From: a virus | Lineage: Duplodnaviria > Caudoviricetes | Direction: 5' to 3' (one strand) | DNA length: 64,000 nt | Virus record (IMG/VR): IMGVR_UViG_3300027766_000001 | Shown here: positions 1,457 through 59,788 of the stretch, one piece after another | Layout: every line of letters begins with the position of its first letter | Numbering within the stretch: position 1 is the first letter of the stretch | Translations under genes and position numbers: made by a program | The notes under the pieces: generated by a model | What the model was told of the DNA's origin: nothing | Databases searched by the model: none | Seen by the model: only the letters and a program-made list of their open reading frames with translations

Positions 1457-1856
1457 GTTACTGGTCAAAGGAGCAACGGTGGATTTCATCGTTGAGGCAC
1501 CTGAGATCTTAACCAGTGGATTTACGAACGCGAAGATCATGGCTGATCTGGATATGGAAACCGCACAGGCGTTGGGGCTTGATGTGCAAGCCAAACACCA
1601 AAGCCTGTACCCGCTCATTAAAGGAAAGGGCATTGCTGATGACCCGTCTTCATACGGCTACATTCGTGTGCAGAAAGAAAGCGGGTCCATTGTCATGCTC
1701 GGTATTCCATGGATCAAGGAATCCTCCATTGTCGCGAAGCAACGTCGTCGCATCACAGTGGACATTCCTGACGTGGGGACCAATGACATCGCTATCGTGA
1801 AAGCTGCATTGGAATCCAATGGCTATCCAGATGCCGTGGTGAAATTGGTAGATTGA
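1446..1856 (+). CDS. conserved chimallivirus protein (phiKZ gp49-like position)
   Basis: Immediately upstream of the DNA polymerase; DDPSSYGY and LGIPWI motifs; followed by a terminator. Confidence 0.6.
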   Translation: MGYELLVKGATVDFIVEAPEILTSGFTNAKIMADLDMETAQALGLDVQAKHQSLYPLIKGKGIADDPSSYGYIRVQKESGSIVMLGIPWIKESSIVAKQRRRITVDIPDVGTNDIAIVKAALESNGYPDAVVKLVD

Positions 1857-1858
1857 AC

Positions 1859-1896
1859 CATGGGGGCTTAGGCTCCCGTGGTTTTCTTTTATGCCC
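1859..1896 (+). terminator. hairpin followed by T-tract and TTATGCCC
   Basis: CCATGGGGG-cttagg-CTCCCGTGG then TTTTCTTTTATGCCC. Confidence 0.7.
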
Positions 1897-1961
1897 AGCA
1901 TTTATTTTTTGACATTGTTGGGCTATCCAATAGAGACCATTTTCGGCCGTAAGGATATTCC

Positions 1962-4073: not shown

Positions 4074-4075
4074 AC

Positions 4076-4117
4076 CGGCATAAGGGTCAGAGGGGGTCAC
4101 ACCCCTCTGACCTGCCG
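4076..4117. terminator. bidirectional terminator between convergent genes
   Basis: GGTCAGAGGGG-gtcaca-CCCCTCTGACC flanked by CGGCATAA (TTATGCCG on the minus strand) and TGCCG. Confidence 0.8.
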
Positions 4118-4125
4118 TCTGATAA

Positions 4126-5235
4126 CTATTTGTCTTTAATACGCTGCCGTATGCTGGCAAGTTCTTTTGTAATAACTTGATCGATACTTTGTGGCATTCC
4201 ACCAATACGAAAGGTATTGTCGTTCTTGATGATGTTCAGGCTGTGTAACACCTCGTTAATCAGAGCACCTTCTTTACGGCCACGGTTAAACGAGTATTCC
4301 ACTTCCAGTAAGAAGTCGACCAACCAGCTGCGTGCAATGATCCACGCCCAACGACTTTGACGCATATCCAAATCAATGGGTAGGCGAATAGCGTTGTAGC
4401 CAGACTGTGTAAAGGTCGGCATCATCATCAGTACGGCTTCCCAATACCGAGGTGTGCGTTTGAGCTCTTTGACGTTGTGCGCAATCACGTTATCGGCCAG
4501 TGTCATGTCATCCATTAGCCAGAACGGTTGACGAGGATTGAGACTGTGGCCTTTAATGCCGCGATACGCTTTGATGGTCCGGTTGATTAAAGCAATGTCG
4601 TTGTGTGACTTCACCAGGTTCTGTACCGGATAGCAGGCTACAAACTGTTGAATGGTCGGGACCGGTTTAGGGTTGGTCTCAGCCACCCACTGGTTGAACT
4701 TGAGCCACTGCAGCGCTAATAAAGGAATGTTAACACTGAGTACAGCAATACCACTTCCACCCATGATCTGACGTTTATCGAGCAGACCGTAGTTGGAGAC
4801 GTCATAAGGGTGACGGTGAACACGCACCGGTTCCATGTCATACCAGGGTGTGGTTAACGCTTCTTCATAGGTAGTCGACGTGGCGATCACAATCTCCATG
4901 ACGCTATCAGGGTAGAAGCTGGATTTACTGATGGTGCCGTAACTGGTACTGGAGGTCATTCCCACGGCATTGGCTAAACGGTAATCACGCAGACGAACTT
5001 CATCGTAGTATTTACGAACATCTTGCGCCGATAATTGTGTAAGCTTGCCCGGTAATTTTATTTGTTTGAGTAGCCTGCAAACCACGTGATTGTTTTGGAC
5101 GTGGAAAGTATTGCGTCTAAAATAATCTTGTGCACGCCCGAGGTTAAGCATAGCAATGTCCCGTAAACGGTCCATCTGCGGGTTCATCATGTTACCATGA
5201 TTGAGCTGCATATCGTTACTGAATAAGGTGTACAT
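4126..5235 (-). CDS. conserved chimallivirus protein (phiKZ gp52-like, putative virion protein)
   Basis: 369-aa minus-strand ORF between the DNA polymerase and chimallin, as in the phiKZ block; GAGG RBS. Confidence 0.65.
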   Translation of the reverse strand: MYTLFSNDMQLNHGNMMNPQMDRLRDIAMLNLGRAQDYFRRNTFHVQNNHVVCRLLKQIKLPGKLTQLSAQDVRKYYDEVRLRDYRLANAVGMTSSTSYGTISKSSFYPDSVMEIVIATSTTYEEALTTPWYDMEPVRVHRHPYDVSNYGLLDKRQIMGGSGIAVLSVNIPLLALQWLKFNQWVAETNPKPVPTIQQFVACYPVQNLVKSHNDIALINRTIKAYRGIKGHSLNPRQPFWLMDDMTLADNVIAHNVKELKRTPRYWEAVLMMMPTFTQSGYNAIRLPIDLDMRQSRWAWIIARSWLVDFLLEVEYSFNRGRKEGALINEVLHSLNIIKNDNTFRIGGMPQSIDQVITKELASIRQRIKDK

Positions 5236-5357: not shown

Positions 5358-5374
5358 CCTATATTACCTAAGTG
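5358..5374 (+). promoter_or_regulatory. early (virion RNAP-type) promoter for chmA
   Basis: CCTATATTAC-ctaa-GTG; matches the TATTAC early consensus of phiKZ-like phages and recurs upstream of other genes in the window. Confidence 0.7.
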
Positions 5375-5452
5375 TAATTACCATGGTAATTTCATTCGCG
5401 AATGTTAAATATAAGTGGCCCCGCCACTGAACACCAAAAAGGAACAAGCAGT

Positions 5453-7504
5453 ATGAAAACTCGTAACGACCAGCCGCAACCAGCTAACAACTCTCTGGCC
5501 GATGCACTGAACCAGGCGAACGCACAGCAGCAGCCTCAGGCACAACCGCAGGCGCAGCCACAACCTCAGGTTCAACAGCCGCAGGGTACTGCTCAGCAGC
5601 AGCCGATCTTCCAGCAGCCGCAACAGGGCTTCGCTGGTCAGGCGCCGCAGCAGGATGGCCAGGATCGTAACTCTAAGATCTTCGGTCTGAACAACCGCAT
5701 GTCGCGTACCTTCTCTTCTCAGACCTATTCTGAGAACTTCAAGATCGCGAACGAAGCGGTGCAGGAATTCTGCAAACCGTACGAAGGTGATGGCTTCAAC
5801 CAGACCTTCTTCGTAATCCCACTGCAGGACCAGAACCTGCACTGTGCTGCACTGATCTACGTCATGGCTATCAGCCAGTCCGCTTACGGCGTGTACACCT
5901 ACATGCTGGAAAACACCGGTAGCCCGCTGAAGCCGCTGGTAGGTAACGACCAGTTCACTGGCGAGCGCTATGAGCTGCCGCGCATGACCGGTTCTCAGTA
6001 CGATGATATCTACTGGGGTGCCGTGAAGGGCGCAGTAATCCGTCATCTGAAACTGCAGAACAACTCTGCTGTCCAGATCATGGAAGCTGGCGCGGGTGTT
6101 ATCCATGCGGAAATGGATTGGAAAGACGGTGGCGCAATCGGTCGTCTGCTGAACAACGCAGAAAACGCCGTGTACGCTTACGCGAACCGCATCTCTGGCT
6201 ACAAGATCGAAGAGCCGCTGAACCTGGCAACTGCGATCAACCCGCTGGTTGACCGTCTGTCCGCTGGTTTCAACTTCAATCCGCAGCCTCTGATTACGGC
6301 TGATGGTCAGCCGATGCGCAACGACGTAGAGATCAAACTGACCGTGTCTTCTGAAGGCAACGTGCAGGTACAGAACTCTGAGCCGTTCACTACCGTTCAC
6401 GGTTACGTGGAACTGGTAAGCGCAGGTCCGCAGCCGGTCATGATCCCGAACGGTTACGGTCAGATGATGCAGGCGCCGCAGCGCTACTACCCGCAGCTGG
6501 CAATCACTGCCGTTGACCAGGGTATCTTCGACGCAGAAGCACCGGAGTTCCAGGTGCTGGGTCTGTACGTAGCCACCCTGTTGCTGGAAAACAACAACTG
6601 GATGAATGCGTTCGCACCACGTATGGTCGGCGGTGTTGATATCAACGATATCGGCGCACTGAACTACGAACTGCGCATGGGCGTGGATCCGCAAGATCCT
6701 AACGCGCGTCCGAAGAAGATCGATACCAAAACGCACGAGTTCAACAACAACGCACTGCAGCAGCTGCTGAGCCAGGCGTGCTTCCCGAACATGTCCGTAG
6801 TCATGGACATCGAAGAAACTGGTCACCGTAACTGGGTGAACTCCATGTTCCTTCAAGCGGGCGGTATCCCGGGTTCTAACGCAACCATGCTGCCGCAGGA
6901 CGGCCGTCTGGCGCACGAAGCAGTTATCGCTGCTGCGAACAACCTGACCAATGGCGAGTTCAGTAAGTTCTTTACTGACACTACCAAACTGATCACTATC
7001 CGTGACGGTTCTCGTATCCAGGGTGGTTACTACCTGAGCGACGATGGTAAGCGTCTGGACGTTCGTAACGTTGACCTGGTAGCAGTACTGAACTTCCTGG
7101 GTGAATCTGATCCGCGTCGCGTTGAAGAATGGAAAATGATCTGTTCTTCTACCTCTGGCCTGTCTGGTCCGAAACGCATCGCACTGCGTCAGCAGTTCCT
7201 GCAGACTATCCTGGGTGCATCGTACGTGCAGAAATGCTACTACGAGCGCGTCATGATTTCCAACGACTTCCTGGCCGCACTGCGTTCTGCAATCATCGCA
7301 GCCGGTGTTCAGGTTCGTCCGGAGAACATGTCTAACCAGTACAACGCCATGTCTTACGGCATGCCGCTGGCCGCACAGTATGGCTTCAACACCCATACCG
7401 CGTCTTCGCTGCAGGCTGCAGGCTACGGTCAGCTGGATCAGCAGGGTCGTGTCGTACAGTTCGGTAACTACCGTACTCCGTTCGGCCACTTCAACGTCCA
7501 GTAA
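5453..7504 (+). CDS. chmA: chimallin, major phage nuclear shell protein (phiKZ gp54-like)
   Basis: About 683 aa from ATG 5453 (AAAGGA RBS); strongest host-optimal codon bias in the window; disordered Q-rich N-terminus; aromatic/Gly C-terminal segments; lies between the gp52-like gene and the nvRNAP beta' N subunit. Confidence 0.88.
   Translation: MKTRNDQPQPANNSLADALNQANAQQQPQAQPQAQPQPQVQQPQGTAQQQPIFQQPQQGFAGQAPQQDGQDRNSKIFGLNNRMSRTFSSQTYSENFKIANEAVQEFCKPYEGDGFNQTFFVIPLQDQNLHCAALIYVMAISQSAYGVYTYMLENTGSPLKPLVGNDQFTGERYELPRMTGSQYDDIYWGAVKGAVIRHLKLQNNSAVQIMEAGAGVIHAEMDWKDGGAIGRLLNNAENAVYAYANRISGYKIEEPLNLATAINPLVDRLSAGFNFNPQPLITADGQPMRNDVEIKLTVSSEGNVQVQNSEPFTTVHGYVELVSAGPQPVMIPNGYGQMMQAPQRYYPQLAITAVDQGIFDAEAPEFQVLGLYVATLLLENNNWMNAFAPRMVGGVDINDIGALNYELRMGVDPQDPNARPKKIDTKTHEFNNNALQQLLSQACFPNMSVVMDIEETGHRNWVNSMFLQAGGIPGSNATMLPQDGRLAHEAVIAAANNLTNGEFSKFFTDTTKLITIRDGSRIQGGYYLSDDGKRLDVRNVDLVAVLNFLGESDPRRVEEWKMICSSTSGLSGPKRIALRQQFLQTILGASYVQKCYYERVMISNDFLAALRSAIIAAGVQVRPENMSNQYNAMSYGMPLAAQYGFNTHTASSLQAAGYGQLDQQGRVVQFGNYRTPFGHFNVQ
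5519..5660 (+). repeat. Q/P/A low-complexity repeat in the chimallin N-terminus
   Basis: Encodes NAQQQPQAQPQAQPQPQVQQPQGTAQQQPIFQQPQQG. Confidence 0.8.
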
Positions 7505-7511
7505 GTTGTTA

Positions 7512-7557
7512 GCATAACCCCATGGAGGAGAGGGAAACCTCTCCTCCTTTTATGCCC
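7512..7557 (+). terminator. strong terminator after chmA
   Basis: GGAGGAGAGG-gaaa-CCTCTCCTCC-TTTTATGCCC, preceded by GCATAA. Confidence 0.85.
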
Positions 7558-7594
7558 TATCACTATTTTTTTACCTGTTGGAAGAGGATAAGTC

Positions 7595-9067
7595 ATGCAG
7601 CCAATAGCCAATGGCGGTGTGTGCGCAACGGTAGCTGATCACGACAAAGCGTTTTTACAGCTGACGTATAGCCCGGTGTTAATCAATGATTTTGATCTTA
7701 GCATCGAAGCAGAACGTGCCAAGCTGAATGCGCAAATGCGTGTGAGCTACGATGCGGACATGTTTAGCGTGAAGCCACGTTGTTTCTGTGGTAAGTTAGA
7801 AGGGGGCGAAAAGGTTGGGCGTGTATGCGGTTCATGTAACACCAAAGTTACAGTGGTAACTGAGGAAGCCATTGAATCACAACTCTGGTTCCAAACACCT
7901 GTAGGCGTTGCCGGCTTTATTAACCCACAGATCTGGACGTTGTTGTTCCAGCCGTTTGTGGTGAAAGGATTCAACCCACTGGAATACTTTGCTGACCGTC
8001 AATATACGCCAGCAAAAAGCAGTGGTGATTACCGTAACAAAGAAATCTACAAACTCTGTAAAGAGATGGGTTTCCCCCGTGGCATGAACAGCCTGGTAGA
8101 GAACTTCGATAAGATCATGACTACGCTGCTGAACTCGTCAGTGGTGCGTGGCAGTAACATCTCATCAGAAGCCCTGCGTAACTATGCGGGTCTCTATCAA
8201 CAATACCGTGAAGTGATCTTCTGTAAGTATCTGCAGCTGCCGTCAAAGCTGGTATTCATTGTTGAATCCAATGCAACCGGTCGCTATGCAGAGCCTGGTA
8301 TGAAGATGGCCCAGGATGCGGCTCTAACGATCTGTGATGCCCGCAAGGAACTCATTGATCAACACGACTTACGGTATAACGAAAACATCGCTATCAAGGT
8401 TGTGCGTGGCCTGGCAAGCTTCTACGCAACCCATGATAAAGATATCTTCGCAGGTAAACCGGGATTGCTTCGTAAGAACATCGGTGGTTCACGCATGCCC
8501 TTTACGGCACGCTGTGTTATCACCTCGAAGACCGGTAATCACGACATGGATGAAGTGGATATCCCGCGGTGTATTGCGATTCCGTTGTTGCGGTTCCACA
8601 TTGCCAACAAGCTGAAGTTACTGGGTTATAATCCGATCCAGATACTGTCGATGATTACCTCATCGATTAAACAGCCGGTGGACGTGATTGATAAGGTGCT
8701 GGATGAGTTAGAACTGGATCCGAACGTTACGGGACCTACAGCACGTCTGATCAAGATCTTCTTGTTACGTAACCCAACCTTACGCTGGTTGTCTAACCGT
8801 CGTTTCTGGGTGCGTATCAACCGCAATCCGGAAGAGATCACCATCAAGATCTCAACCCTGTCTATTATCTCCTCGAACGCTGACTTCGACGGTGATGAGT
8901 TGAACCTGTTAATGGTCACTGATGAAATCATGTCCACGTATGCGGAAGCATTCGGATCCCACAACTGTGTGTTGGATATGAACAGTCCCTTAACCGTATC
9001 GGGTGACATTGCGTTACCGGCTACGTTAATTTCAACCATGAACCGTTGGGCGTACAGTCACGATTAA
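7595..9067 (+). CDS. rpoC: non-virion RNA polymerase beta' N-terminal subunit (phiKZ gp55-like)
   Basis: Zn-ribbon CFCG...CGSC, LRKNIGGSR, LLRNPTL and catalytic NADFDGDE motif. Confidence 0.93.
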   Translation: MQPIANGGVCATVADHDKAFLQLTYSPVLINDFDLSIEAERAKLNAQMRVSYDADMFSVKPRCFCGKLEGGEKVGRVCGSCNTKVTVVTEEAIESQLWFQTPVGVAGFINPQIWTLLFQPFVVKGFNPLEYFADRQYTPAKSSGDYRNKEIYKLCKEMGFPRGMNSLVENFDKIMTTLLNSSVVRGSNISSEALRNYAGLYQQYREVIFCKYLQLPSKLVFIVESNATGRYAEPGMKMAQDAALTICDARKELIDQHDLRYNENIAIKVVRGLASFYATHDKDIFAGKPGLLRKNIGGSRMPFTARCVITSKTGNHDMDEVDIPRCIAIPLLRFHIANKLKLLGYNPIQILSMITSSIKQPVDVIDKVLDELELDPNVTGPTARLIKIFLLRNPTLRWLSNRRFWVRINRNPEEITIKISTLSIISSNADFDGDELNLLMVTDEIMSTYAEAFGSHNCVLDMNSPLTVSGDIALPATLISTMNRWAYSHD

Positions 9068-9073: not shown

Positions 9074-9103
9074 GGGCGGGGTGTAAACTCCCCCGCCTCT
9101 TTT
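9074..9103 (+). terminator. intrinsic terminator
   Basis: GGCGGGG...CCCCGCC followed by TCTTTT. Confidence 0.65.
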
Positions 9104-9115
9104 CGGAGATCTTCC

Positions 9116-9805
9116 ATGTACGAGAAATATAAACACAGGCTATCGGAAGCCGAGTTTATCGATTTGGGCAGAACCATTTACGAACGGGATGGATTCTTTA
9201 ACGCGCCTTACTTTCAATACATCGTGGTAGCCTGTAACCAGCCGTCGTTTGACGCGGTGCTGTACTACCTGGCGGTGGTAAAGAAAGAAGTTCGTTTGGA
9301 GCTGATAGAACGTTACAGTAATGAATACGCACATGCTGGCGGTTATACGTTGCGTTATTACAATGGACAAACCGTGGTAAATATTCTTGGCCTCCACATG
9401 AAGGATGTCGATAATTATAACCACTACAGTGCTGACTCTTTCTTCGACGTTCTAGCGCATGAAATCCAACATCTGCTAATCGCATACTACCAGCGGTTTA
9501 ACATCAACCCGGTGTTGGAAGAAGAACCGCATGCGTATATGTCTGGTCTGCTGATGAGAAAGATCCTGCGTATTGTGCGTGCCAACTACGCCGCTGGGTT
9601 TATTCACGTGCCGAACAAGGTGTACGGTTGTGTGGATGGTTTGGGTTTGTTGCCGACCGCTATGCAACCCAGTGTCTTAACTGTATTGTCAGGGACTGTC
9701 AATCAGATGATGACGAACTCAAGTGGGTTAGTAGGGTACCAAAAAGGTATCTGGCAAGCCACCACATACTTCTCAGGGGGTGAATATGTCGAACGCACTC
9801 GTTGA
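9116..9805 (+). CDS. putative zincin-type metallopeptidase
   Basis: LAHEIQH (HExxH) followed by EEEPHAY as a candidate third Zn ligand. Confidence 0.55.
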   Translation: MYEKYKHRLSEAEFIDLGRTIYERDGFFNAPYFQYIVVACNQPSFDAVLYYLAVVKKEVRLELIERYSNEYAHAGGYTLRYYNGQTVVNILGLHMKDVDNYNHYSADSFFDVLAHEIQHLLIAYYQRFNINPVLEEEPHAYMSGLLMRKILRIVRANYAAGFIHVPNKVYGCVDGLGLLPTAMQPSVLTVLSGTVNQMMTNSSGLVGYQKGIWQATTYFSGGEYVERTR

Positions 9806-10439
9806 GCGTGGGCAACAGGTGATGGATGAGTTTGCACTCAATTGTGCGCCTTTTACTTACCAGGCGTATCTGGTGTTTAACGAACCTGACCTGTTGGCGC
9901 TGAAATCGTATCTGGAAACACTTATCTTACATGACGGTGCGGGGTGGGAAACCTTTAAAGATCTGGATCGCAATTTTGATCTGCTGCATCTTAAAAATGC
10001 TGCAGGCAACAGAGCATTGTCCATCATCTACATGCCGGTGTTTAAGTTCCAGCAACTGGGTACGAACTTCCTGGCGGTGTATCGACGCATAGCGTTACAC
10101 ATCTCTGAGATTGTGTTCAGTGCCGCAGACCTGGCTGGTTATGGTTTAGATAAAAGCCGGGATATGTTTAATCACCTGGTGGGTAACCTGGCCTCGGGTG
10201 CGCTGGTGATGATCGGCCGATACATCGGGGGTAATGTTTGCGCTACGTCAGATGAAGCACGTTTCCTGGACCAGAACCTCACTCGTGAACAATGGTACTA
10301 TGTGGATCGTCTGACACCGACAGCACTGTCTACAGTGGCTCGTGAGCACTTCATGACCGTTACCAATGGACAGGCGTATATCGACTCAAACGGCAATTGG
10401 TTTGCCAAAACTTACTTCCATGACAAACAGCCAGGGTAA
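9786..10439 (+). CDS. hypothetical protein, probable paralog of 9116..9805 lacking HExxH
   Basis: AGGGGG RBS; similar length and N-terminal pattern (NAPYFQY vs CAPFTYQ); both have TYF near the C-terminus. Confidence 0.6.
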   Translation: MSNALVERGQQVMDEFALNCAPFTYQAYLVFNEPDLLALKSYLETLILHDGAGWETFKDLDRNFDLLHLKNAAGNRALSIIYMPVFKFQQLGTNFLAVYRRIALHISEIVFSAADLAGYGLDKSRDMFNHLVGNLASGALVMIGRYIGGNVCATSDEARFLDQNLTREQWYYVDRLTPTALSTVAREHFMTVTNGQAYIDSNGNWFAKTYFHDKQPG

Positions 10440-10453
10440 CCTGGCTTTTATGC
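10429..10453 (+). terminator. hairpin plus TTTTATGC
   Basis: AGCCAGG-gtaa-CCTGGCT-TTTATGC. Confidence 0.7.
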
Positions 10454-10472
10454 TGATTAAAAGGAAACTTGT

Positions 10473-11636: not shown

Positions 11637-11653
11637 CCTACATTACTACCGTG
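11637..11653 (+). promoter_or_regulatory. early promoter
   Basis: CCTACATTAC-tacc-GTG. Confidence 0.65.
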
Positions 11654-12369: not shown

Positions 12370-12399
12370 AGCCTGGGGTAACACCCAGGCTGTTATGAC
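12370..12399 (+). terminator. hairpin plus variant TTATGACG
   Basis: AGCCTGGG...CCCAGGCT-GTTATGACG. Confidence 0.6.
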
Positions 12400-12417
12400 G
12401 ATCAGAGGTGACTTAAC

Positions 12418-13032: not shown

Positions 13033-13306
13033 GTGGGGGACCGGGCCGACGTTGTGTATACCGCCTGACCCGGCGCTGGACAATTTGCTGGCTTCATGGG
13101 GTGATCAATGTCTGGGTCGTGTTGATCCTGGTTTAATACCGGGTTCAATGATCGGTGAACTCAAGCGTGGTGATATGTGTAAGATGGGTGCATTAGAAGG
13201 TGGCCCGCTTCTGGCATCTGCCGCACGTAGTCAGTTGTTGCGCGCTCATGTCCAGATGCTTTCTGGGGGCACAGAGAAGACCGGTTTCGAGCACAAGGAG
13301 CAATAA
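12992..13306 (+). CDS. hypothetical protein with basic N-terminus
   Basis: GGAG RBS; TAATG coupling to the next gene. Confidence 0.5.
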   Translation: MRFPGRRKYKRKSKWGTGPTLCIPPDPALDNLLASWGDQCLGRVDPGLIPGSMIGELKRGDMCKMGALEGGPLLASAARSQLLRAHVQMLSGGTEKTGFEHKEQ

Positions 13307-13572
13307 TGTCAACGTCCTTCACGATCAGGCACTATGCTCGCAAACACCGTAGTTGGCGCCATCCGTTATACCACGGTAATGTGTGCGAAGAGCTGTATCA
13401 CCAGATCGCTGAACTCAAGGTTATTCGTCATCACTACGCCTTGCTCCTTAAAACGAACAAGTCTAGTTATAACCGTAATATGTTTGACGCGCTCTGTGTT
13501 AAGATCAAAGACCTGCGTGACCAGTATCATGTCGCGTATCGGGAATCTGATCCTCATCGTAAACCATCATAA
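13306..13572 (+). CDS. hypothetical protein
   Basis: AAGGAG RBS; coupled to the upstream stop; followed by a terminator. Confidence 0.7.
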   Translation: MSTSFTIRHYARKHRSWRHPLYHGNVCEELYHQIAELKVIRHHYALLLKTNKSSYNRNMFDALCVKIKDLRDQYHVAYRESDPHRKPS

Positions 13573-13573
13573 C

Positions 13574-13625
13574 AGGCAGGGGTTTCGACCCCTGCCTTTA
13601 TGCCGTTTCTTTTCTTTTATTTTTA
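13574..13625 (+). terminator. hairpin plus TTATGCCG plus T-tract
   Basis: AGGCAGGGG-tttcga-CCCCTGCCT-TTATGCCG. Confidence 0.85.
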
Positions 13626-13644
13626 AGTTGCAGAAAATCTCAGA

Positions 13645-13661
13645 CCTATATGACTGAGGTG
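13645..13661 (+). promoter_or_regulatory. early promoter variant
   Basis: CCTATATGAC-tgag-GTG, one mismatch to the CCTAYATTAC consensus. Confidence 0.5.
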
Positions 13662-13724
13662 TATAAGAGCAATAAGCTCTGCACATAACCCATTCTTCTG
13701 ATCAATCCAATTAAGGAATTCACT

Positions 13725-14508: not shown

Positions 14509-14535
14509 GGTGGTCATTGCCCGCGCATGCGGGCA

Positions 14536-14569
14536 AGCCCAGCTGTTCCCCTGGGCTCTTTTTTTTTTT
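14536..14569 (+). terminator. intrinsic terminator
   Basis: AGCCCAG...CTGGGCT followed by a long T run. Confidence 0.8.
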
Positions 14570-14612
14570 GTTGATTTATCTCTATGTAGACACGGATAAA
14601 TCAGGAACCATT

Positions 14613-17605: not shown

Positions 17606-18349
17606 ATGGCCCGTCCTCAATTTACCCCACGTGAAAAATCGTTCCTGAATGACTGGAACACCTGCATGAAAGGACCGACGCAGAACGGTGCGCAGCATCC
17701 GTCTGAATTCCGTATGGTTATGGCCGGTAACAACGTGGCTATCCAGATCGAAACCAAACTGCGTGATGCCAAGAACTACGGTCGCTTTGAAGTCAAAGTC
17801 CCGTACACCTCTGCAATCGGCGTGCTGGTGACAATCGACTACCTGCTGAAGAACAAAGACAAAGGCAAGCTGTCTTATGCCATGAAAGACTTCGTCTTCT
17901 TCGGCCCGGGTAAACGTTCTGACAGCCCGATGGAGAAAGGTAAGCTGACCGTGGGTCGTGATGCAGACGGTTGTCTGTACATGGGCCTGTCGGGCAAAGA
18001 CATCACTCCGATCAAATTCGTGTTCGTGCCGGCGATGTTCGATGAATGGCTGGATGAAAGCGGTTCACGTCTGGCGCCTGCGCCGCAGTCTGAGCTGGCT
18101 GCAACCATGTTCTACGAAACCTATCGCGGTCTGCTGCCGGTCATCGCAACCATGTACTACAAAGAGCCTGAGAAGAAAGAAGGCGGTAATGGTGGTAATG
18201 GCGGCGGCGGAAACGGTGGCGGCTACGGCGGTGGTAACCGTGGTGGCAATGGTGGCGGAAATGGCGGTGGTGGTAACTGGGGTGGTGGCGGTAATAACAA
18301 CTCTGGTGGCGGTGATTCTGGCGGCTTCGACGACAGCATTCCGTTCTAA
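17606..18349 (+). CDS. chmC: ChmC, nucleus-associated nucleic-acid-binding protein (phiKZ gp67-like)
   Basis: Core gene preceding the gp68-like nvRNAP subunit; beta-rich N-terminal domain plus G/N-rich disordered tail ending FDDSIPF; AGGAG RBS. Confidence 0.7.
   Translation: MARPQFTPREKSFLNDWNTCMKGPTQNGAQHPSEFRMVMAGNNVAIQIETKLRDAKNYGRFEVKVPYTSAIGVLVTIDYLLKNKDKGKLSYAMKDFVFFGPGKRSDSPMEKGKLTVGRDADGCLYMGLSGKDITPIKFVFVPAMFDEWLDESGSRLAPAPQSELAATMFYETYRGLLPVIATMYYKEPEKKEGGNGGNGGGGNGGGYGGGNRGGNGGGNGGGGNWGGGGNNNSGGGDSGGFDDSIPF
18181..18325 (+). repeat. Gly/Asn low-complexity repeat (GGN/GGG)
   Basis: Encodes GGNGGNGGGGNGGGYGGGNRGGNGGGNGGGGNWGGGGNNNSGGG. Confidence 0.85.
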
Positions 18350-18379
18350 GCAGTACCAGTTAATGCGCTAACTCATACG

Positions 18380-18408
18380 GGCAGGACTTCGGTCCTGCCT
18401 TTATGCCG
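18380..18408 (+). terminator. UUCG hairpin plus TTATGCCG
   Basis: GGCAGGAC-ttcg-GTCCTGCC-TTTATGCCG. Confidence 0.85.
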
Positions 18409-18446
18409 GTTGATGGTATGAACTTACTATTGGGTTAGAGGCGTTT

Positions 18447-19217
18447 ATGCTTGAGGCATTATTATCTTCACCGCCTTTAATAAAGGCAGCCCCTGGTCAG
18501 GTACAATATGTCATAGCGGGAACATATTCATGGAAGGTTCCTGATGGGGTGAAATCTATCTGTGCAGTCTGCATCGGGGGTGGGTCACAAGCTTCATCAA
18601 CTGGCGGGTTCTTCGGTGGGATGGGCGCGGCGTTACGTTGGGAAAACAACATCCCTGTCACACCAGGCGAAACCTTGACTATTGTTGTGGCGGCAGGAAA
18701 ACCATCGATTGGCTACACGGGTGCATTGGGTTATTCTGCCGGTAATGATACGATTATCAAACGCGGATCAACCATTTTGCTTAAAGCAGCCGGTGGGCGT
18801 CAAACCAGTGATCAGCAAATTGCTGACTCAGTGGGTGTCAATGGCGGTAATGGTGGGGTACGTATCAGTGCACCCAATAACAACTCGGGTATTCCTGGTT
18901 CAGGTACGGGTGGTTATTTTGGGGACGGTGGCGGTAGTTCAGCGAATGCTCAGCCTACTGATACCACCGCAGGTAAAGCAGGCGGAACAAGTGGCAACTC
19001 TGTAAACGGACAATACATCAGTGGCGGTGGTGACGGCACTGGTGCGTTCCTCACAGGGCAAGGCGGCTCAGGCACACGTTGCGGTGCCGGTGGTGGTTGT
19101 ACTAGCCGTTCGAGTGATTACGCCAAAGCATACGGTCCCGGCGGTACAGGTGGTTGTCGAATCATTTGGGGTACCGATCGTTCGTACCCAAGCAATGCTT
19201 TAGATGTAGCAGCATAA
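18447..19217 (+). CDS. glycine-rich virion/tail-fibre-associated protein
   Basis: GTYSWKVPDGVKSICAVCIGGG ... GGTGGCRIIWG glycine-rich fibre signature; own TATG motif at 18417 and own terminator. Confidence 0.7.
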   Translation: MLEALLSSPPLIKAAPGQVQYVIAGTYSWKVPDGVKSICAVCIGGGSQASSTGGFFGGMGAALRWENNIPVTPGETLTIVVAAGKPSIGYTGALGYSAGNDTIIKRGSTILLKAAGGRQTSDQQIADSVGVNGGNGGVRISAPNNNSGIPGSGTGGYFGDGGGSSANAQPTDTTAGKAGGTSGNSVNGQYISGGGDGTGAFLTGQGGSGTRCGAGGGCTSRSSDYAKAYGPGGTGGCRIIWGTDRSYPSNALDVAA

Positions 19218-19223
19218 TTACCG

Positions 19224-19254
19224 GGCCGGGGAGTCATACCCGGCCTTTATGCCG
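19224..19254 (+). terminator. hairpin plus TTATGCCG
   Basis: GGCCGGG...CCCGGCC-TTTATGCCG. Confidence 0.8.
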
Positions 19255-19342
19255 ATCTGGCGCGGTTTCTCCGTTTTTTCTGACATAAACCCCCTACCTT
19301 ATAAGTGTCAGTATTACGCAATAAAACCAAACATTTTTAAAG

Positions 19343-19359
19343 CCTACATTACTAATGTG
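19343..19359 (+). promoter_or_regulatory. early promoter for the gp68-picA-gp70 operon
   Basis: CCTACATTAC-taat-GTG preceded by an A/T tract. Confidence 0.75.
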
Positions 19360-19386
19360 TGTGATCACCATTGAGGATCTTTACCT

Positions 19387-23993: not shown

Positions 23994-24002
23994 TCGGTAG
24001 GC

Positions 24003-24060
24003 CGGCATAAGTAAGAGGCGATGTGGGGGAAACCCCACATCTGCCCCTTCTTATTTTTTG
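24003..24060. terminator. bidirectional terminator
   Basis: CGGCATAA ... GATGTGGGG-gaaa-CCCCACATC ... TTATTTTTT between convergent genes. Confidence 0.85.
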
Positions 24061-24062
24061 TC

Positions 24063-24413
24063 TCACTTATTAGTGTAGTGAAGCGTGATCAGCCCTTGCA
24101 GCATTTGATCTGATTCATCGATGACCAACATCCCCTCTCTTAAGAAGTCCCAGATGAACGGATCGATGATGTCGTTAATGCGCATGATCAGCCAGTGCAG
24201 ATGCATTGGCGTACCGAATTCCTTTAACACCATGCGAAAGTCACCACGGTCATTCTCTTGTGCGAGAAGGGACGGTGCCTTATCACCCGTTACCAACGTA
24301 GCACGTGCTTTCAGGAGGTCAATATGTTTCTCCAGCTTAGAGCGAAACACCGGATCGTTGAACAGTTTGTTACTGGGATACTTGATTTTGTTTCTGGCCG
24401 TGATCATCGTCAC
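24063..24413 (-). CDS. putative LysM-like baseplate wedge protein (T4 gp53-like)
   Basis: FGTPMHLHWLIMRINDIIDPF resembles the T4 gp53 YG...LYW.....N...DPF pattern; GGAG RBS; start is 24413 or 24407. Confidence 0.5.
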   Translation of the reverse strand: MTMITARNKIKYPSNKLFNDPVFRSKLEKHIDLLKARATLVTGDKAPSLLAQENDRGDFRMVLKEFGTPMHLHWLIMRINDIIDPFIWDFLREGMLVIDESDQMLQGLITLHYTNK

Positions 24414-26610: not shown

Positions 26611-28578
26611 ATGCAAACTTATAACTGGCAAGATCTGTTGGCAATGAATGAAGAGCAGATCTGGTCGATTGATACCGGTAACAACCCTACCATTCAGGTG
26701 GTAGCACGGGACAAGTCATTTGAGATCCTTTCTCGACTGGTGATCGTGAGCTGGTATTGTTGGCCACTGCAACGTGCCTTTGCTGGAATGCCGCTGGATA
26801 AGCGGCACTTCGCAACTGCACACCGTTTATCCAACAAAACCATTCTGGGGATTCTGACACAAGGCTACCGCGATTACGTCGATGCCTTCCCAGGAATCTT
26901 TGATGTGGTTGACATTAATAGCCGGGTGGCGAAAGCCGTCAACATCATTAACAACGTGTTCGTGATGAAGATTCCGGAGTATGTGACAACTGCATCGATG
27001 CGTCAGTACATTGAGGTACTTGACGACCCAGAACTGGCAGCAGTACGTAAAGCCATGGAGCCGAACCAGAACTCCATCCGTGAAGGCTATAAGACTGGCT
27101 TGGCAATCATTAAGCGCCCGGAGAAGTTTCTGGGTAATCAGATTGCTGAGGACATCAAACAGGGATCGGTGTCGGACGGTCAGACCTCGCAGGTGTTTAT
27201 TGCGCGTGGGTATCTGACTGACCATAACTCCCGTATCTTTGTGCGACCGGTCATGGCGTGTTATGCGGAAGGCTTGGGGCGGTTCTATGACTCGTTGGTG
27301 GAATCCCGTTCAGCAACCAAAGCGATGCTGTTCCAGAAGAAACCACTGGAAGACTCCGAATGGTTCAACCGTAAGATGCAGCTGGTTGCTCAGGCGGTTC
27401 AGCGCATCCACATGAACCAAGACTGTGGTTCCACGACCACGGTTCCGGTGCTGGTGAAAGATGGTTGGCTCAGTCGTTTAGCCGGTAAGTATTACTACGC
27501 TGACGACAACAAAACCCTGAAATGTGTTTCCGATAAAGACGACCATCTCATTGGCCGCATTATTCATATGCGATCCCCAATGTATTGTAATCATCCGGAT
27601 CGCTCAGGGGTGTGTTCGACCTGTTATGGGAAACTGGCCTTAAGTCTGCCGTACTTTAATGCCTTGAGTGAAGTCGGTCGTAACGAAATCATTCTCGGTC
27701 ATATCAGTGCAACAGAAATCGGTCAGGACCTGTCGCAGAAGATGCTGTCCACGAAGCACCTGGATACATCGTCGACCACCGAGCCATTCATTCCACGTCG
27801 GCAAGATGCCATGTATATTGTAGAGGGACTACGCGATAACGCCGTGCGTTTACACCCGCGTCTGAAGAAAGACAAGGTGAAGTTGAAAGTAAACTTTAAC
27901 AAAACCACGGCATTATCTGACATCTACATGGCTGAAAACCTGGATGAGGTTGCAACACGTGCAGGCGGGTTTACTGAGATCGTTCTGGAGTTTGAACGCG
28001 ACGGTGGTTTCACCGAATCGATTCCCATTCCAACTGTACAAGGCTCACGCCAAGGGCAGTTTACGGTCGACTTCCTGCGCTTCCTGCAAAAGGCGAACTG
28101 GACCAACGCAGAGAAAGGTTTCATTGTGATTGATCTGTCGTCGTTCGAGTATGACATCGATGTGGTTGAACTGCCACTGGTGCATCAGGACATGACGGTC
28201 TACCAGAAACAGATCGAAGCGTTCATCAGGTTCAGTAAAGAGTCTGCGAAGTGGAAAGGTAAGTTCGTGACACCAGAGGATGCCGGTTTAGCACTGAGTG
28301 AATTCTACACCCTGCTGACTGAGCGTTTGAAGGTGAACATCGTGCATGCGGAAATCATGCTGTATTCAGTGATGACACTGGACCCGGCTAACTATGACTA
28401 CCGTCTGCCCCGTGCTAACGAAAACCGTCAGTTCTCTTCGTACCACGAATGTATTGAGTTCCGTTCACTGTCGGTCCAGCTTCTGTATCAAGAGCAGGCA
28501 ACCATCATGGCGAAACCCACCACGTTCCTGGTTAAGAACCGCCAACCTCACCCAGCCGACAGCATCTTTGTTGACTGA
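26611..28578 (+). CDS. rpoC: non-virion RNA polymerase beta' C-terminal subunit (phiKZ gp74-like)
   Basis: EGLGRFYDSLVESRSATKA, bridge-helix-like SEWFNRKMQL, DCGS, Zn site RSPMYC...GVCSTCYG, trigger-loop QKMLSTKH. Confidence 0.9.
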   Translation: MQTYNWQDLLAMNEEQIWSIDTGNNPTIQVVARDKSFEILSRLVIVSWYCWPLQRAFAGMPLDKRHFATAHRLSNKTILGILTQGYRDYVDAFPGIFDVVDINSRVAKAVNIINNVFVMKIPEYVTTASMRQYIEVLDDPELAAVRKAMEPNQNSIREGYKTGLAIIKRPEKFLGNQIAEDIKQGSVSDGQTSQVFIARGYLTDHNSRIFVRPVMACYAEGLGRFYDSLVESRSATKAMLFQKKPLEDSEWFNRKMQLVAQAVQRIHMNQDCGSTTTVPVLVKDGWLSRLAGKYYYADDNKTLKCVSDKDDHLIGRIIHMRSPMYCNHPDRSGVCSTCYGKLALSLPYFNALSEVGRNEIILGHISATEIGQDLSQKMLSTKHLDTSSTTEPFIPRRQDAMYIVEGLRDNAVRLHPRLKKDKVKLKVNFNKTTALSDIYMAENLDEVATRAGGFTEIVLEFERDGGFTESIPIPTVQGSRQGQFTVDFLRFLQKANWTNAEKGFIVIDLSSFEYDIDVVELPLVHQDMTVYQKQIEAFIRFSKESAKWKGKFVTPEDAGLALSEFYTLLTERLKVNIVHAEIMLYSVMTLDPANYDYRLPRANENRQFSSYHECIEFRSLSVQLLYQEQATIMAKPTTFLVKNRQPHPADSIFVD

Positions 28579-30142: not shown

Positions 30143-30160
30143 CTGCGTGTCTGACATGGA

Positions 30161-30197: not shown

Positions 30198-30211
30198 ACA
30201 AGGATTTGGGT

Positions 30212-33448: not shown

Positions 33449-33674
33449 AGCGGCTATTCTCTGTCTGGTGTCGTACGCGGCACCAGTTTATGCTGACGAG
33501 CGTCCAAAGACTGACCACTGCGTTGCGACTACCATTGACAGTACGGTTATCACGCAGTGTGACAATGGTACTGTTAGCACGGTTAACAATGTCTCTGGTA
33601 CGATGGTGGTTTGTCAGACGTCGGGATCTAACATACCGTCGTGCACCAAAATTAATCTTCGGGAGAAGTCATGA
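33435..33674 (+). CDS. small secreted Cys-containing protein
   Basis: GTG start with GAAAGG RBS; signal peptide MRNIKAAILCLVSYAAPVYA then D; four Cys in the mature part. Confidence 0.6.
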   Translation: MRNIKAAILCLVSYAAPVYADERPKTDHCVATTIDSTVITQCDNGTVSTVNNVSGTMVVCQTSGSNIPSCTKINLREKS

Positions 33675-35277: not shown

Positions 35278-35931
35278 ATGTTAGACTCCATGATTATGAC
35301 CGGCAAACCATACGCCAACTACTACGTTGATTTAAGCTTCGATAAAGATGCGACTGGGTCGCGCATCTTAATGGATCGAGGTACTGCAGCTGTAACGTTT
35401 ACACGCACAGCCAATAGCGCGGGTGCAAATGACGGGGTTGTCGATGACCCTGTATTTGGTAAGTGTTATTTGTTCGATGGCAACGCTTACTTTGTCGGCT
35501 CTAAGGCATTGAACATCTGGAACAAACAGTACCGGATGCGGCTGAAGTTTGTGCCCAATACCACGTTGTCGCGTGGGATAATAGAAACAGGTAATTACCC
35601 ATCATCAGGCAACATCAAAGCAGGGTGGGCGCTGTCGATTAACCAATACACCCAAACGTACTTTCAGATGTTCATGACCCAGCAAAACGGCGTGTACGCG
35701 CGCTTATTGCCGACAGGCGTTAACCCGGGTAACGCGGTGTTGGAAGACTACGAGATCACCCGTATCGGCAGCACCATTACGGTGAAGAACATGAACACCG
35801 GCCAAACCGCGTCAAACCAGTTTTTGACTAACGGTGAAAACAATATCCATGTTGCCGGTAGCTACACTGGCGGGTTTAATAATACGTTCATTGGTTTACT
35901 CAAATCGTTCCAAATCGAACTCTTGGCGTAG
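35278..35931 (+). CDS. LamG/concanavalin A-like lectin-fold virion protein
   Basis: DPVFGKCYLFDGNAYF ... FIGLLKSFQI LamG-like pattern; TATG motif at 35251; AGAGG RBS; own terminator. Confidence 0.6.
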   Translation: MLDSMIMTGKPYANYYVDLSFDKDATGSRILMDRGTAAVTFTRTANSAGANDGVVDDPVFGKCYLFDGNAYFVGSKALNIWNKQYRMRLKFVPNTTLSRGIIETGNYPSSGNIKAGWALSINQYTQTYFQMFMTQQNGVYARLLPTGVNPGNAVLEDYEITRIGSTITVKNMNTGQTASNQFLTNGENNIHVAGSYTGGFNNTFIGLLKSFQIELLA

Positions 35932-35932
35932 G

Positions 35933-35961
35933 AGCAGGGCTTCGGCCCTGCTTTTATGCCG
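35933..35961 (+). terminator. UUCG hairpin plus TTATGCCG
   Basis: AGCAGGGC-ttcg-GCCCTGCT-TTTATGCCG. Confidence 0.85.
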
Positions 35962-36015
35962 GTCTGTTTCTTTTGACTATTTCTGTACATCTATTACACT
36001 CCAGGAAATTTCACG

Positions 36016-38585: not shown

Positions 38586-38996
38586 ATGGCCAAGGTCTAT
38601 AGCAAAATAGTGGCGATCTCCACTGACTTTGCCGGCGACTTCTCGTTTCCCGAATTACGGAAATGTCTGCCTACCGGTATCCGCATCACAGCACTGTACA
38701 ACTTTGCCACCGCTACGCAATTTGCAGCCGATGTAAAAGCGGCTATGAAACGCAGTGACGTTATTGTTGTAGACACCAGTGATCACACCTTACGCTTCTT
38801 ACGTCTGCTGGACATTCCGTATCAGCTGATCTACGCAAGCTACTGTGTGACCGATATTGAACAGCGTCACATCACCAACTGCCGACGCCAGGCCAACTGT
38901 ATCCACACGGAACTGAAAGCCCGAGGCGATTACAAACGTCTGGTATTCGACTTCCGTGAAGATCAGGGATTGTCGGTTGAGCTTCCATCAGCATAA
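38586..38996 (+). CDS. hypothetical alpha/beta protein
   Basis: GAGGTG RBS; 136 aa. Confidence 0.7.
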   Translation: MAKVYSKIVAISTDFAGDFSFPELRKCLPTGIRITALYNFATATQFAADVKAAMKRSDVIVVDTSDHTLRFLRLLDIPYQLIYASYCVTDIEQRHITNCRRQANCIHTELKARGDYKRLVFDFREDQGLSVELPSA

Positions 38997-39048
38997 AAGC
39001 ACGAGGGTCTCTTCTCCCACGACGGGAGAAGAGACACCTCTATGCCGG
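38991..39048. terminator. bidirectional terminator
   Basis: GCATAA ... GTCTCTTCTCCC-acgac-GGGAGAAGAGAC ... CTATGCCG. Confidence 0.85.
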
Positions 39049-39050
39049 CT

Positions 39051-44237: not shown

Positions 44238-44254
44238 CCTACATTACTAGAGTA
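44238..44254 (+). promoter_or_regulatory. early promoter
   Basis: CCTACATTAC-taga-GTA. Confidence 0.65.
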
Positions 44255-44296
44255 GTCCTCCACTTCGGAGGCTACTCCGGTAGTGTCTTTATGCCG
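44250..44296 (+). terminator. hairpin plus TTATGCCG overlapping the early promoter start
   Basis: GAGTAG-t-CCTCC-acttc-GGAGG-CTACTC ... TTTATGCCG. Confidence 0.65.
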
Positions 44297-44377
44297 ATCT
44301 GTGTATTCTTTTACACAAACCGATAAATACCAATAACGGCCCTGATGCCGTATTGACCTGTGAATAAAGGAGATGAC

Positions 44378-45325: not shown

Positions 45326-45332
45326 TTCACCG

Positions 45333-45360
45333 GGCAGGGGAAACCCTGCCTTTTATGCCG
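45333..45360 (+). terminator. GAAA hairpin plus TTATGCCG
   Basis: GGCAGGG-gaaa-CCCTGCC-TTTTATGCCG. Confidence 0.85.
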
Positions 45361-45380
45361 ACTAAAAAGAGAACCTAAAC

Positions 45381-49124: not shown

Positions 49125-49125
49125 T

Positions 49126-49180
49126 CGGCATAAAAGAGCCAGGGCTCCCGTCAAGGGCCCTGGACTCTTTATTTATGCAG
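49126..49180. terminator. terminator flanked by CGGCATAA and TTATGCAG
   Basis: CCAGGGC...GCCCTGG stem. Confidence 0.7.
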
Positions 49181-49186
49181 AGGATA

Positions 49187-52262: not shown

Positions 52263-52265
52263 TCA

Positions 52266-52330
52266 GCATAAAGGAGGCACTCTTTCCCTTCGGGGAAAGA
52301 GGCCTCTGTTTTATGCCGTTCTTTTCTTTT
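52266..52330. terminator. bidirectional terminator
   Basis: GCATAA ... CTCTTTCCC-ttcg-GGGAAAGAG ... TTTTATGCCG followed by T runs. Confidence 0.85.
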
Positions 52331-58468: not shown

Positions 58469-59728
58469 ATGACTACCTTAGCGGACTCTATCCGTAGCAC
58501 GATTAACCTGACCGATGATCTCATTACGTTACTGCAACGCGCTGAGATGCTGGAGACGTTAACCAAAGAGCACACTGAGTTCTCTGGGATGTACGACAAG
58601 ATCCGTGACAAGATCATGTTCATCACCGGCTCCATGGAGTCAATTGATGAGCACGGGATTTCACAAGAGATCATTACCAGCATCCATGTGCAATTGCCAG
58701 GTATCGCTGAAGAGGTACCGGTCAACGGTTACACCCAAGCACTGTCCAGGCTGAACGTGGGTTATGCACTGGAGTCGCTGTCAGACGGTAAGCAGCATCT
58801 CATTGCCGGTGGTATCAGTGGTGTCATTGTTATCATCATCAAAGCACTGAAGTGGTGTCTTGCCACGCTCAAGGGGTATCTGAAGTCACGCCGTGAAATC
58901 AACCGGGTTGGTTTAGCGGTAACCGGGAATGCCAATCGTCTGGGTGCGACTGACACACCGGCAGATATCCTTGATCGTCTGACCAAAAGCAAAGACTTCA
59001 TCGATGCGGCAAACGGCTATAACTGGCTGATCTCTATCCGTGAAGAAACGGATGCGCCGTTTACCTTTGATAGCAACGCGCTTACCGAATGGTGGCCCGA
59101 GTTGTCAAAAGAGATGGTGTATGAGTTTGAAGCCATTAAAGCCATGTACCAGGCCATGGGTGAAGGTGTCCTCATCAAACCCAACGTGTCGACTGTCAAA
59201 GACTCGGCTGCCTTCTGCCGTTTCTTTAAAGCCCTGCCACAAGGTGTGGGTCGTGACGGGAAACCGTTTAGCCGGGATGCCGCGGTCACCGATTTCCAGC
59301 GCAGCCCAACTGTAGCACTCACCAACCTGAACTCCCGTCTGGGTCAGATGTTCTTGTTACCCAAGATTGATGACAAAGACGCGATGGCACGTAACCTGAT
59401 TCGTATTGGTCGCAGCATTGAAACCTATACGTTGATTGACCGTGTGGTGTACGACGGGTTAAACAGTGTGGAAGTCAACCATACCTTTGACCGTCTGCAT
59501 ACCGAGTTCAGTGCGTTCTACAAGAGCTTGCAGTCGCAGAAGTACACGGCGCCGCAAGATCACGTGGATGCCTTTGTTCAAGTGGTGAACAAGTACGCTG
59601 AGAAGATGAACTGCTATTCTCGTCTGATCACCGTGGTTGCCTACCTGGATTCCATGAGTTACACGGCCGGTGCCTCACTGGCTGAGTTCGTGGCACGCTG
59701 GACAGCAGAAATGGAAAGTCGCATATAA
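58469..59728 (+). CDS. internal head protein, paralog of 57065..58459
   Basis: SME and ALE sites; G.S.EII ... GYT.ALS.LN.G.ALES aligns with GMSRE ... AFTELPTN...GMES. Confidence 0.65.
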   Translation: MTTLADSIRSTINLTDDLITLLQRAEMLETLTKEHTEFSGMYDKIRDKIMFITGSMESIDEHGISQEIITSIHVQLPGIAEEVPVNGYTQALSRLNVGYALESLSDGKQHLIAGGISGVIVIIIKALKWCLATLKGYLKSRREINRVGLAVTGNANRLGATDTPADILDRLTKSKDFIDAANGYNWLISIREETDAPFTFDSNALTEWWPELSKEMVYEFEAIKAMYQAMGEGVLIKPNVSTVKDSAAFCRFFKALPQGVGRDGKPFSRDAAVTDFQRSPTVALTNLNSRLGQMFLLPKIDDKDAMARNLIRIGRSIETYTLIDRVVYDGLNSVEVNHTFDRLHTEFSAFYKSLQSQKYTAPQDHVDAFVQVVNKYAEKMNCYSRLITVVAYLDSMSYTAGASLAEFVARWTAEMESRI

Positions 59729-59729
59729 A

Positions 59730-59788
59730 GCACAGAGGCCTCCTCTCCCCGTGAAGGGAGAGGAGTGCCCCTTATGCCGATTATGCCG
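59730..59788. terminator. bidirectional terminator with tandem TTATGCCG
   Basis: CTCCTCTCCC-cgtgaa-GGGAGAGGAG then TTATGCCGA-TTATGCCG. Confidence 0.8.

Follow-up and report, generated by a model that had tools for sequence, protein, structure and literature searches.

A hairpin with a conserved TATG-Y-Y-G tail as the probable transcription terminator of a nucleus-forming jumbo phage

Terminator-like hairpins with a fixed tail

On both strands of the 64-kb stretch of viral DNA analysed here (the window), 22 sites were catalogued that combine a hairpin with a TATG box downstream of it (Table 1). The element is probably, at odds we put at about 85%, the standard transcription terminator of the Chimalliviridae, as judged here from motif homology and position and in relatives from mapped RNA 3′ ends. 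This reading draws on the hairpin statistics, the gene-end context, the type of genome, the mapping in phages phiKZ and 201phi2-1, the orthologous sites and the breadth of occurrence in the family. Elements of this kind have already been published for phiKZ and 201phi2-1, and the novelty implied by an earlier, sequence-only reading of this DNA was too high. The proposed unit, a GC-rich stem-loop of free sequence followed by 1–3 T and a fixed TATG-Y-Y-G tail (TATGCCG here), would halt the multisubunit RNA polymerases of the phage where genes end; for stops on both strands, the tail would be mirrored as CGGCATAA...TTATGCCG around a single hairpin.

The window belongs to an undescribed chimallivirus (nucleus-forming jumbo phage) of Enterobacterales, as follows from the chimallin and RNA polymerases (RNAPs) it encodes and from its relationships to Erwinia phage pEa_SNUABM_48, Salmonella phage SA002 and phage RAY. 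Gene 5402-7504 specifies chimallin, the nuclear shell protein (phrog_4795, 2e-148). Split RNAP subunits are encoded at 7595-9067, 24489-26600, 26611-28578 and 42870-44180 (matches to phrog_2987, 3295, 3015 and 2962), the RAY counterpart of the last being annotated as vRNAP beta′, and subunits of both nvRNAP and vRNAP are present, along with two DNA polymerase genes and a helicase. The nearest records are pEa_SNUABM_48 (pEa48) and SA002, with ~77% nucleotide identity and 72–79% identity in chimallin; chimallin identity is 56% to the Agricanvirus group (RAY) and 23–29% to phiKZ, Goslar, 201phi2-1 and others. A tblastn search returned no gp123 orthologue in the 64-kb window.

The TATG core occurs at all 22 catalogued sites; the box reads TATGCY in 20 and TATGCCG in 12, and a G follows both pyrimidines in 18. 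The RNA upstream of the box folds with -13 to -29 kcal/mol at each of the 22 sites, and the spacer between stem and TATG measures 0–7 nt and consists mostly of 1–3 T. Just 2–5 T precede A-T-G-C-C, and a U-rich tract of 7–9 nt is absent. The 22 sites comprise the 16 listed in the sequence-only reading, four more at 7516(-), 19216(-), 49174(+) and 33489(+), and two with variant boxes, CTATGCCGG at 39041(+) and TTATATGCG at 59725(-). Every TTATGC position listed earlier for the + strand proved correct (1889, 7550, 10448, 13598, 18401, 19247, 35954, 44289, 45353, 52311 and 59772), as did every (CG)GCATAA position for the - strand (4076, 24003, 38991, 49126 and 52266); GCATAA is also found at 7512.

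Table 1. Hairpins with a TATG box, and gene-end hairpins with a T tract, in the 64-kb window.
Position	Strand	Element	Gene context	Fold (kcal/mol)	Remarks
7512..7557	+	GCATAA-ccccat-GGAGGAGAGG-gaaa-CCTCTCCTCC-tt-TTATGCCC	between stop of 700-aa gene and next gene		sequence across the sites at 7509..7547(-) and 7524..7558(+)
1850..1897	+	hairpin + TTTATGCCCA	after 1446-1856, upstream of DNA polymerase gene	-21.9	kept in SA002, pEa48
4075..4112	-	hairpin + CTTATGCCGG	after 4126-5235(-), faces DNA polymerase gene 3′ end	-23.1	SA002, pEa48 and RAY orthologues with other stems, same TATGCCG
7509..7547	-	reverse arm + TTATGCTAA	no - strand gene upstream		same hairpin as 7524..7558(+); kept in SA002, pEa48, absent in RAY
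7524..7558	+	hairpin + TTTTATGCCCT	after chimallin gene	-21.5	kept in SA002, pEa48, RAY with changed stems
10429..10456	+	short hairpin + TTTATGCTGA	after 9780-10439, stop codon in loop	-13.3	
13574..13606	+	hairpin + TTATGCCGT	after 13306-13572	-19.8	orthologous sites found
18379..18409	+	hairpin + TTATGCCGG	after 17606-18349	-16.4	
19209..19245	-	reverse arm + TTATGCTGC	overlaps stop codon of 18447-19217; no - strand gene upstream		
19223..19255	+	hairpin + TTATGCCGA	after 18447-19217	-18.2	orthologous sites found
24002..24049	-	hairpin + CTTATGCCGG	after 24063-24413(-), convergent gap	-27.3	orthologous sites found
33465..33496	+	hairpin + TTTATGCTGA	after 32309-33448	-15.1	weakest assignment; ATG of box may be start of ORF 33490
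35931..35962	+	hairpin + TTTTATGCCGG	after 35278-35931	-16.7	
38988..39035	-	hairpin + TTTTATGCTGA	after 39051-39395(-)		box contains TAA stop of 38586-38996
39003..39048	+	hairpin + CTATGCCGG	after 38586-38996	-29.0	same hairpin as 38988..39035(-); variant without first T
44250..44297	+	hairpin + CTTTATGCCGA	110 nt past vRNAP beta′ gene 42870-44180		directly 3′ of CCTACATTAC box
45332..45361	+	hairpin + TTTTATGCCGA	after 44360-45325	-16.6	
49125..49170	-	reverse arm + TTTATGCCGA	faces 3′ end of 48768-49124; no - strand gene <=3 kb upstream		
49134..49181	+	hairpin + TTATTTATGCAGA	after 48768-49124	-22.8	
52263..52306	-	hairpin + CTTTATGCTGA	after 52336-52857(-), convergent gap	-24.5	
52273..52319	+	hairpin + GTTTTATGCCGT	after 51354-52262	-25.6	same hairpin as 52263..52306(-)
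59718..59765	-	hairpin + TTTATATGCGAC	after 59781-62735(-)	-21.3	same hairpin as 59734..59780(+); variant
59734..59780	+	hairpin + CTTATGCCGA	after 58469-59728	-26.8	
9074-9112		T-tract hairpin	gene end		
12370-12400		T-tract hairpin	gene end		has GTTATGACG
14517-14570		T-tract hairpin	gene end		
24020-24056		T-tract hairpin	gene end		
30153-30200		T-tract hairpin	gene end		
35216-35246		T-tract hairpin	gene end		
38540-38575		T-tract hairpin	gene end		
50125-50160		T-tract hairpin	gene end		

The total of TTATGC in the 64-kb window is hardly raised (39 copies versus 29 ± 5 in shuffled sequence); it is the association with folded RNA that sets the motif apart. For 19 of the 39 copies, the 41-nt fold immediately upstream lies in the lowest 1% of random positions, where 0.4 copies are expected, and this bears out the link to hairpins proposed earlier. 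In an unbiased k-mer scan, each 44-nt window was folded on both strands, and k-mers were counted that begin where one of the 1% most stable windows ends. TTATGC came out as the most enriched 6-mer (17 of 39 copies, p=7e-24), TTATGCC as the top 7-mer (13 of 16) and TTATGCCG as the top 8-mer (11 of 13), with p between 1e-20 and 7e-24 for the three; runs of T rank below all of them. The ranking was unchanged with a strict stem finder. A scan for minimum free energy at -14 kcal/mol returned ~480 “hairpins”, largely noise from coding regions, and was replaced by the 1% tail and the strict stem finder. Likewise, coding-region matches diluted a TATG-anchored matrix made at a loose fold cut-off (-12), which is left out of all statements on the consensus. 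No family in Rfam matched anywhere in the 64-kb window.

Placement at the ends of genes

A stop codon on the same strand lies 10–110 nt before the site in 19 of the 22 cases. The box is present in all five convergent gaps and in none of the four divergent ones, that is, the promoter gaps, and half of the boxes (11 of 22) face the 3′ end of an opposing gene. The suggestion that the box is part of a terminator, and not simply the TATG late promoter, agrees with this orientation. Its attribution to termination by phage RNAP is also upheld, by the same-strand stop codons together with a motif that matches mapped phiKZ 3′ ends and resembles motif A of 201phi2-1 (see below). In 11 tandem gaps, 1–268 nt separate the box from the start of the following same-strand gene.

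Three convergent gaps carry the mirrored arrangement CGGCATAA...TTATGCCG around one hairpin. The statement that convergent gene pairs have the motif on both sides holds for the gaps 38997-39050, 52263-52335 and 59729-59780; in 4074-4125 and 23994-24062, the box occurs on the - side only, and the + side carries TGCCGTCTG or a T tract instead. As noticed earlier, some stop codons are embedded in the motif: those of genes 18447-19217 and 38586-38996 lie within GCATAA, and that of the opposing gene 59781-62735(-) within a second TTATGCCG at 59781. In the first of the two exceptional gaps, the tail after the DNA polymerase gene (4084-4125, + strand) is TGCCGTCTG, which corresponds to the distal half of the box minus TA; it may be a decayed or half-strength copy, and RAY has the full TATGCCGTCTG elsewhere.

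The box follows early/middle-type genes (chimallin, polymerases, RNAP subunits) as well as virion-type genes on the - strand, the latter assignment resting on weak virion-protein matches for 4126-5235 and 62750-63823; the box is therefore not bound to one temporal class. Three reverse copies, at 7516(-), 19216(-) and 49132(-), have no same-strand gene to terminate, the nearest - strand gene being 3–16 kb off. These copies (7509-7547, 19209-19245 and 49125-49170) could stop antisense transcription, or could serve only as a pairing arm that lengthens the + strand hairpin; at the site after the chimallin gene, for instance, base pairing is possible between GCATAA at 7512-7517 and TTATGC at 7550-7555. 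Past the bidirectional terminator at 49125-49181 come ~260 nt of AT-rich, gene-free sequence (49182-49441).

A further eight strong hairpins located at gene ends carry a T tract only, with no TATGCC tail (Table 1). The tail is thus not obligatory, and two classes of terminator occur side by side. Among the genes of the window, no obvious tie between terminator class and gene function was found.

Conservation across Chimalliviridae

The same unbiased k-mer test was run on ten phages, each sampled over the ~40 kb that surround its chimallin gene. In SA002, pEa48, RAY, Goslar, Eowyn (Klebsiella), LucasX (Xanthomonas) and phiKZ, TTATGC or TATGCC ranks first among the k-mers that follow hairpins; the phages that share it include chimallins 23–56% identical to that of the window and span GC contents from 37 to 55%. 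The signal is weaker in the sample from RP12 (Ralstonia), and the sampled stretch of 201phi2-1 has the tail variant TATGTCGTTTT, which differs from the tail in the window. In the ~40 kb from Bacillus phage AgentSmith, hairpins are followed by T tracts only and the TATGCC tail was not found.

Six syntenic positions were compared between the window, SA002, pEa48 and RAY, and each of the 26 sequences contains TATGCY. The stems at these positions differ by compensatory changes and still pair, those of RAY being completely different. Stems that diverge but remain paired, next to a constant TATGCY, indicate that selection preserves structure in the stem and sequence in the tail. Since the tail stays constant down to ~25% chimallin identity and over GC contents of 37–55% while the stems drift, some conserved component appears to read its bases; most simply, this reader would be the phage RNA polymerase. 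In the literature that we searched on terminators of the phiKZ and 201phi2-1 type, this family-wide spread of the tail was not found. With the box, the ends of transcription units can be marked with confidence in this phage and in its Erwinia and Salmonella relatives, in whose records almost all genes are annotated as “hypothetical protein”.

Likeness to known terminators

The intrinsic terminator of bacteria consists of a hairpin followed by a U tract of 7–9 nt, and the elemental pause consensus of multisubunit RNAPs is G-10, Y-1, G+1. The element in the window shares with these a hairpin, a U-rich proximal segment and a pyrimidine-then-G step 5–8 nt past the stem, at which the polymerase could pause. 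It departs from the canonical terminator in that the 7–9 nt U tract is missing, the distal half is G/C-rich and fixed, and the enzymes concerned are highly divergent phage RNAPs.

The closest counterpart is found in phiKZ, where 133 termination sites have been mapped by ONT-cappable-seq (Putzeys et al. 2024, Microlife, PMC10914365). In that work, 61 predicted intrinsic terminators have in common a stem-loop that leads into a TTAT region (consensus BCCYCCCCHWWDGGGRRGGBYTTATKYYGT), and examples are classed as intrinsic terminators by ARNold (PMC10914365). In 201phi2-1, motif A (n=59) “strongly resembles” the phiKZ motif, and a motif B lengthens the hairpin; for long stems, the authors put forward an anti-antitermination idea as a hypothesis (PMC11512511). 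The function of the tail is left unexplained in both papers.

The terminator-like units in the window and in phiKZ have in common the GC-rich stem-loop, the 1–3 T and TATG-Y-Y-G(T) at gene 3′ ends, as well as the bidirectional pairing at convergent genes, and both phages are chimalliviruses with RNAPs of their own; one box in the window, TTATGCCGT, is an instance of the phiKZ TTATKYYGT. They differ in that the stems in the window are free in sequence and not of the CCYCCCC/GGGRRGG type, and the tail varies less (12 of the 22 sites have TATGCCG, against K-Y-Y in phiKZ). Moreover, the host clade is Enterobacterales, the GC content is 50% versus 37% in phiKZ, and the units in the window are terminators predicted from sequence. 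As with motif B of 201phi2-1, an upstream GCATAA arm lengthens the hairpin at 7512, 19212, 49128 and 52266.

From the numbers given in the phiKZ paper, we placed three RNA 3′ ends relative to stem and tail, with a resolution of ~2 nt and in cases that have A, not G, after TTAT. The re-annotated small RNA 270595-270485(-), which starts one base past TATG, ends 7 nt after a CCAGGGG/CCCCTGG stem, in TTATATT. An RNA of 141 nt upstream of PHIKZ302, if its length is counted from the G of its TATG, ends ~6 nt past a GCCTCCC/GGGAGGC stem, at TTTATA, and an RNA of ~71 nt upstream of PHIKZ221 ends ~5 nt past its stem, at GTTAT. By these placements, phiKZ 3′ ends fall at or just past TTAT, which would put the CCG part either into the active site or into the downstream duplex.

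Proposed mechanism

For the role of the tail, we tentatively favour a pause or an anti-translocation block. The short UUUAU would form a weak proximal hybrid, and AUG-CCG (G-C-C-G) would act as a sequence-specific pause or block to translocation in place of a distal U-tract, by which the polymerase would be held 5–8 nt past the stem during hairpin formation. A purified phiKZ nvRNAP system exists in which termination by such very divergent multisubunit RNAPs can be approached.

A more specific version of this, which we regard as doubtful, starts from the late promoter of phiKZ. This promoter is 5′-TATG-3′ with transcription starting at the G (PMC4666361), and cryo-EM locates the non-template TATG, at -3 to +1, in a pocket of the beta-like subunit GP123 (PMC12809450). 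A GP123-type beta-lobe pocket might capture the non-template TATG at terminators too, so that one pocket would read both start and stop: at the promoter it would anchor the open complex, and behind a nascent hairpin it would stall the enzyme with the 3′ end at UAU and G incoming, upon which the hairpin would release the RNA. In the GP123 orthologues of pEa_SNUABM_37, RAY and Goslar, seven pocket residues out of 14 are unchanged and another two are still aromatic, at an overall identity of 26%; such conservation is compatible with a start/stop pocket, and far from proof. If the pocket reading were true, the conservation of TATGYYG in phages of Pseudomonas, Xanthomonas, Klebsiella, Erwinia and E. 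coli would reflect co-evolution with the pocket.

Alternative readings of the tail

The tail might act in the RNA and be unneeded for termination: a 3′-terminal UUAUGCC could serve in export out of the phage nucleus, in binding ChmC or another RNA-binding protein, as a block to 3′ exonucleases or in processing. We consider this unlikely. Much of the tail would indeed be kept in the RNA if 3′ ends lie 5–7 nt past the stem, as placed in phiKZ, and its conservation is far above what a weak hybrid needs; yet the RNA would end at or before the conserved G (18 of the 22 sites) and the T that follows CC in relatives, which points to an effect at the DNA level or in the active site. Pairing of UUAUGC with a GCAUAA upstream of it could close off the 3′ end, but such an arm is available at only four of the 22 sites. 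Terminators with a T tract in the same genome lack the tail, and their mRNAs also need export.

Alternatively, the hairpin could end one transcript while the TATG in the tail is a live nvRNAP late promoter that starts the next one. Besides the identity of TATG with the exact core that the phiKZ GP123 pocket binds (PMC4666361, PMC12809450) and the kept pocket residues, the distances to the next gene in the 11 tandem gaps would suit such a stop and restart, and the short gaps 10440-10472 and 45326-45380 are without any other promoter-like box. The four shared bases are presumably read by the same enzyme family. The boxes in the window come with a hairpin, with T before and CYG after TATG, and often face the wrong way for any gene, whereas Yakunina et al. 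reported no conservation downstream of TATG in phiKZ late promoters (PMC4666361), and the model promoter P119L (GCTATGT) has neither the hairpin nor the flanking T and CYG. The box also stays with the hairpin at orthologous sites, and the gaps 13573-13724, 19218-19386 and 35932-36083 have separate CCTAYATTAC boxes downstream of the terminator. Stop and restart therefore fails as the main function on the orientation of the boxes (11 of 22 towards opposing 3′ ends, none in divergent gaps), their conserved flanks and the hairpin-free P119L. As a general reading it is quite improbable, and it could operate at some tandem junctions, such as the two short gaps named above.

That the sites are host-type intrinsic terminators or a dispersed repeat of the REP/MITE kind, with the TATGCC tail as an incidental result of the copies’ shared ancestry, is a very remote prospect. 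The hairpins are GC-rich and intergenic and ARNold places the phiKZ examples among intrinsic terminators, but stems that are unrelated within the window, sites that are orthologous between phages in synteny and the 2–5 T before A-T-G-C-C in place of a 7–9 nt U tract rule out both a mobile repeat and an ordinary terminator of the host type, and phiKZ-type phages transcribe without host RNAP (PMC4666361).

The preferred reading, a terminator for the phage’s own polymerases, would also provide jumbo-phage engineering with a ready-made insulator of 35–45 nt.

Neighbouring boxes and tetramer usage

A sequence CGATCTG(T) follows three of the boxes and recalls the T7 class II signal ATCTGTT. We take the likeness to be coincidental, there being no T7-like RNAP in these phages and the bases being unconserved in relatives.

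Five exact copies of a second box, CCTAYATTAC(TA), occur at 5358-5367, 11637-11646, 19343-19352, 36016-36025 and 44238-44247, all of them intergenic and on the + strand; copies with one mismatch start at 13645 and 24440. Their number is not significant (8 versus 4.4 in shuffles, allowing one mismatch); it is their placement that stands out, as a rule between a TATGCC terminator and the gene that follows it. CCTAYATTAC has the look of a class of phage promoters (cf. the TTAC core found in middle promoters of phiKZ), and is a better promoter candidate than the TATG box, which separates terminators from these promoter-like sequences in the same gaps.

At 44238-44297, a hairpin and TTATGCCG come a few bases after the CCTACATTAC box, 60 nt ahead of gene 44360. 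This arrangement may give rise to a short leader RNA or act as an attenuator similar to T102/T131, sites in phiKZ that halt most transcripts within the 5′ UTR.

Furthermore, T-rich boxes (TTTATTTTTTGAC and ATTATTTTTTTACC, at 1900-1917 and 7562-7577) are located 10–20 nt past terminators, upstream of the genes for DNA polymerase and nvRNAP beta′. Their sequence is kept in SA002, pEa48 and RAY, and they may represent a second promoter class rather than a distal U tract.

In coding regions, TATG on the sense strand reaches 0.69 of the number expected from synonymous shuffles and ranks 13th of 256 tetramers. We rejected this avoidance as specific evidence on the box, since tetramers resembling Shine–Dalgarno sequences and A/T-rich ones are depleted more. 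GAGG and GGAG stand at 0.42 and 0.53 of synonymous-codon shuffles, and A/T runs are depleted along with TATG, a pattern that suggests selection against internal look-alikes of ribosome-binding sites, terminators or promoters.
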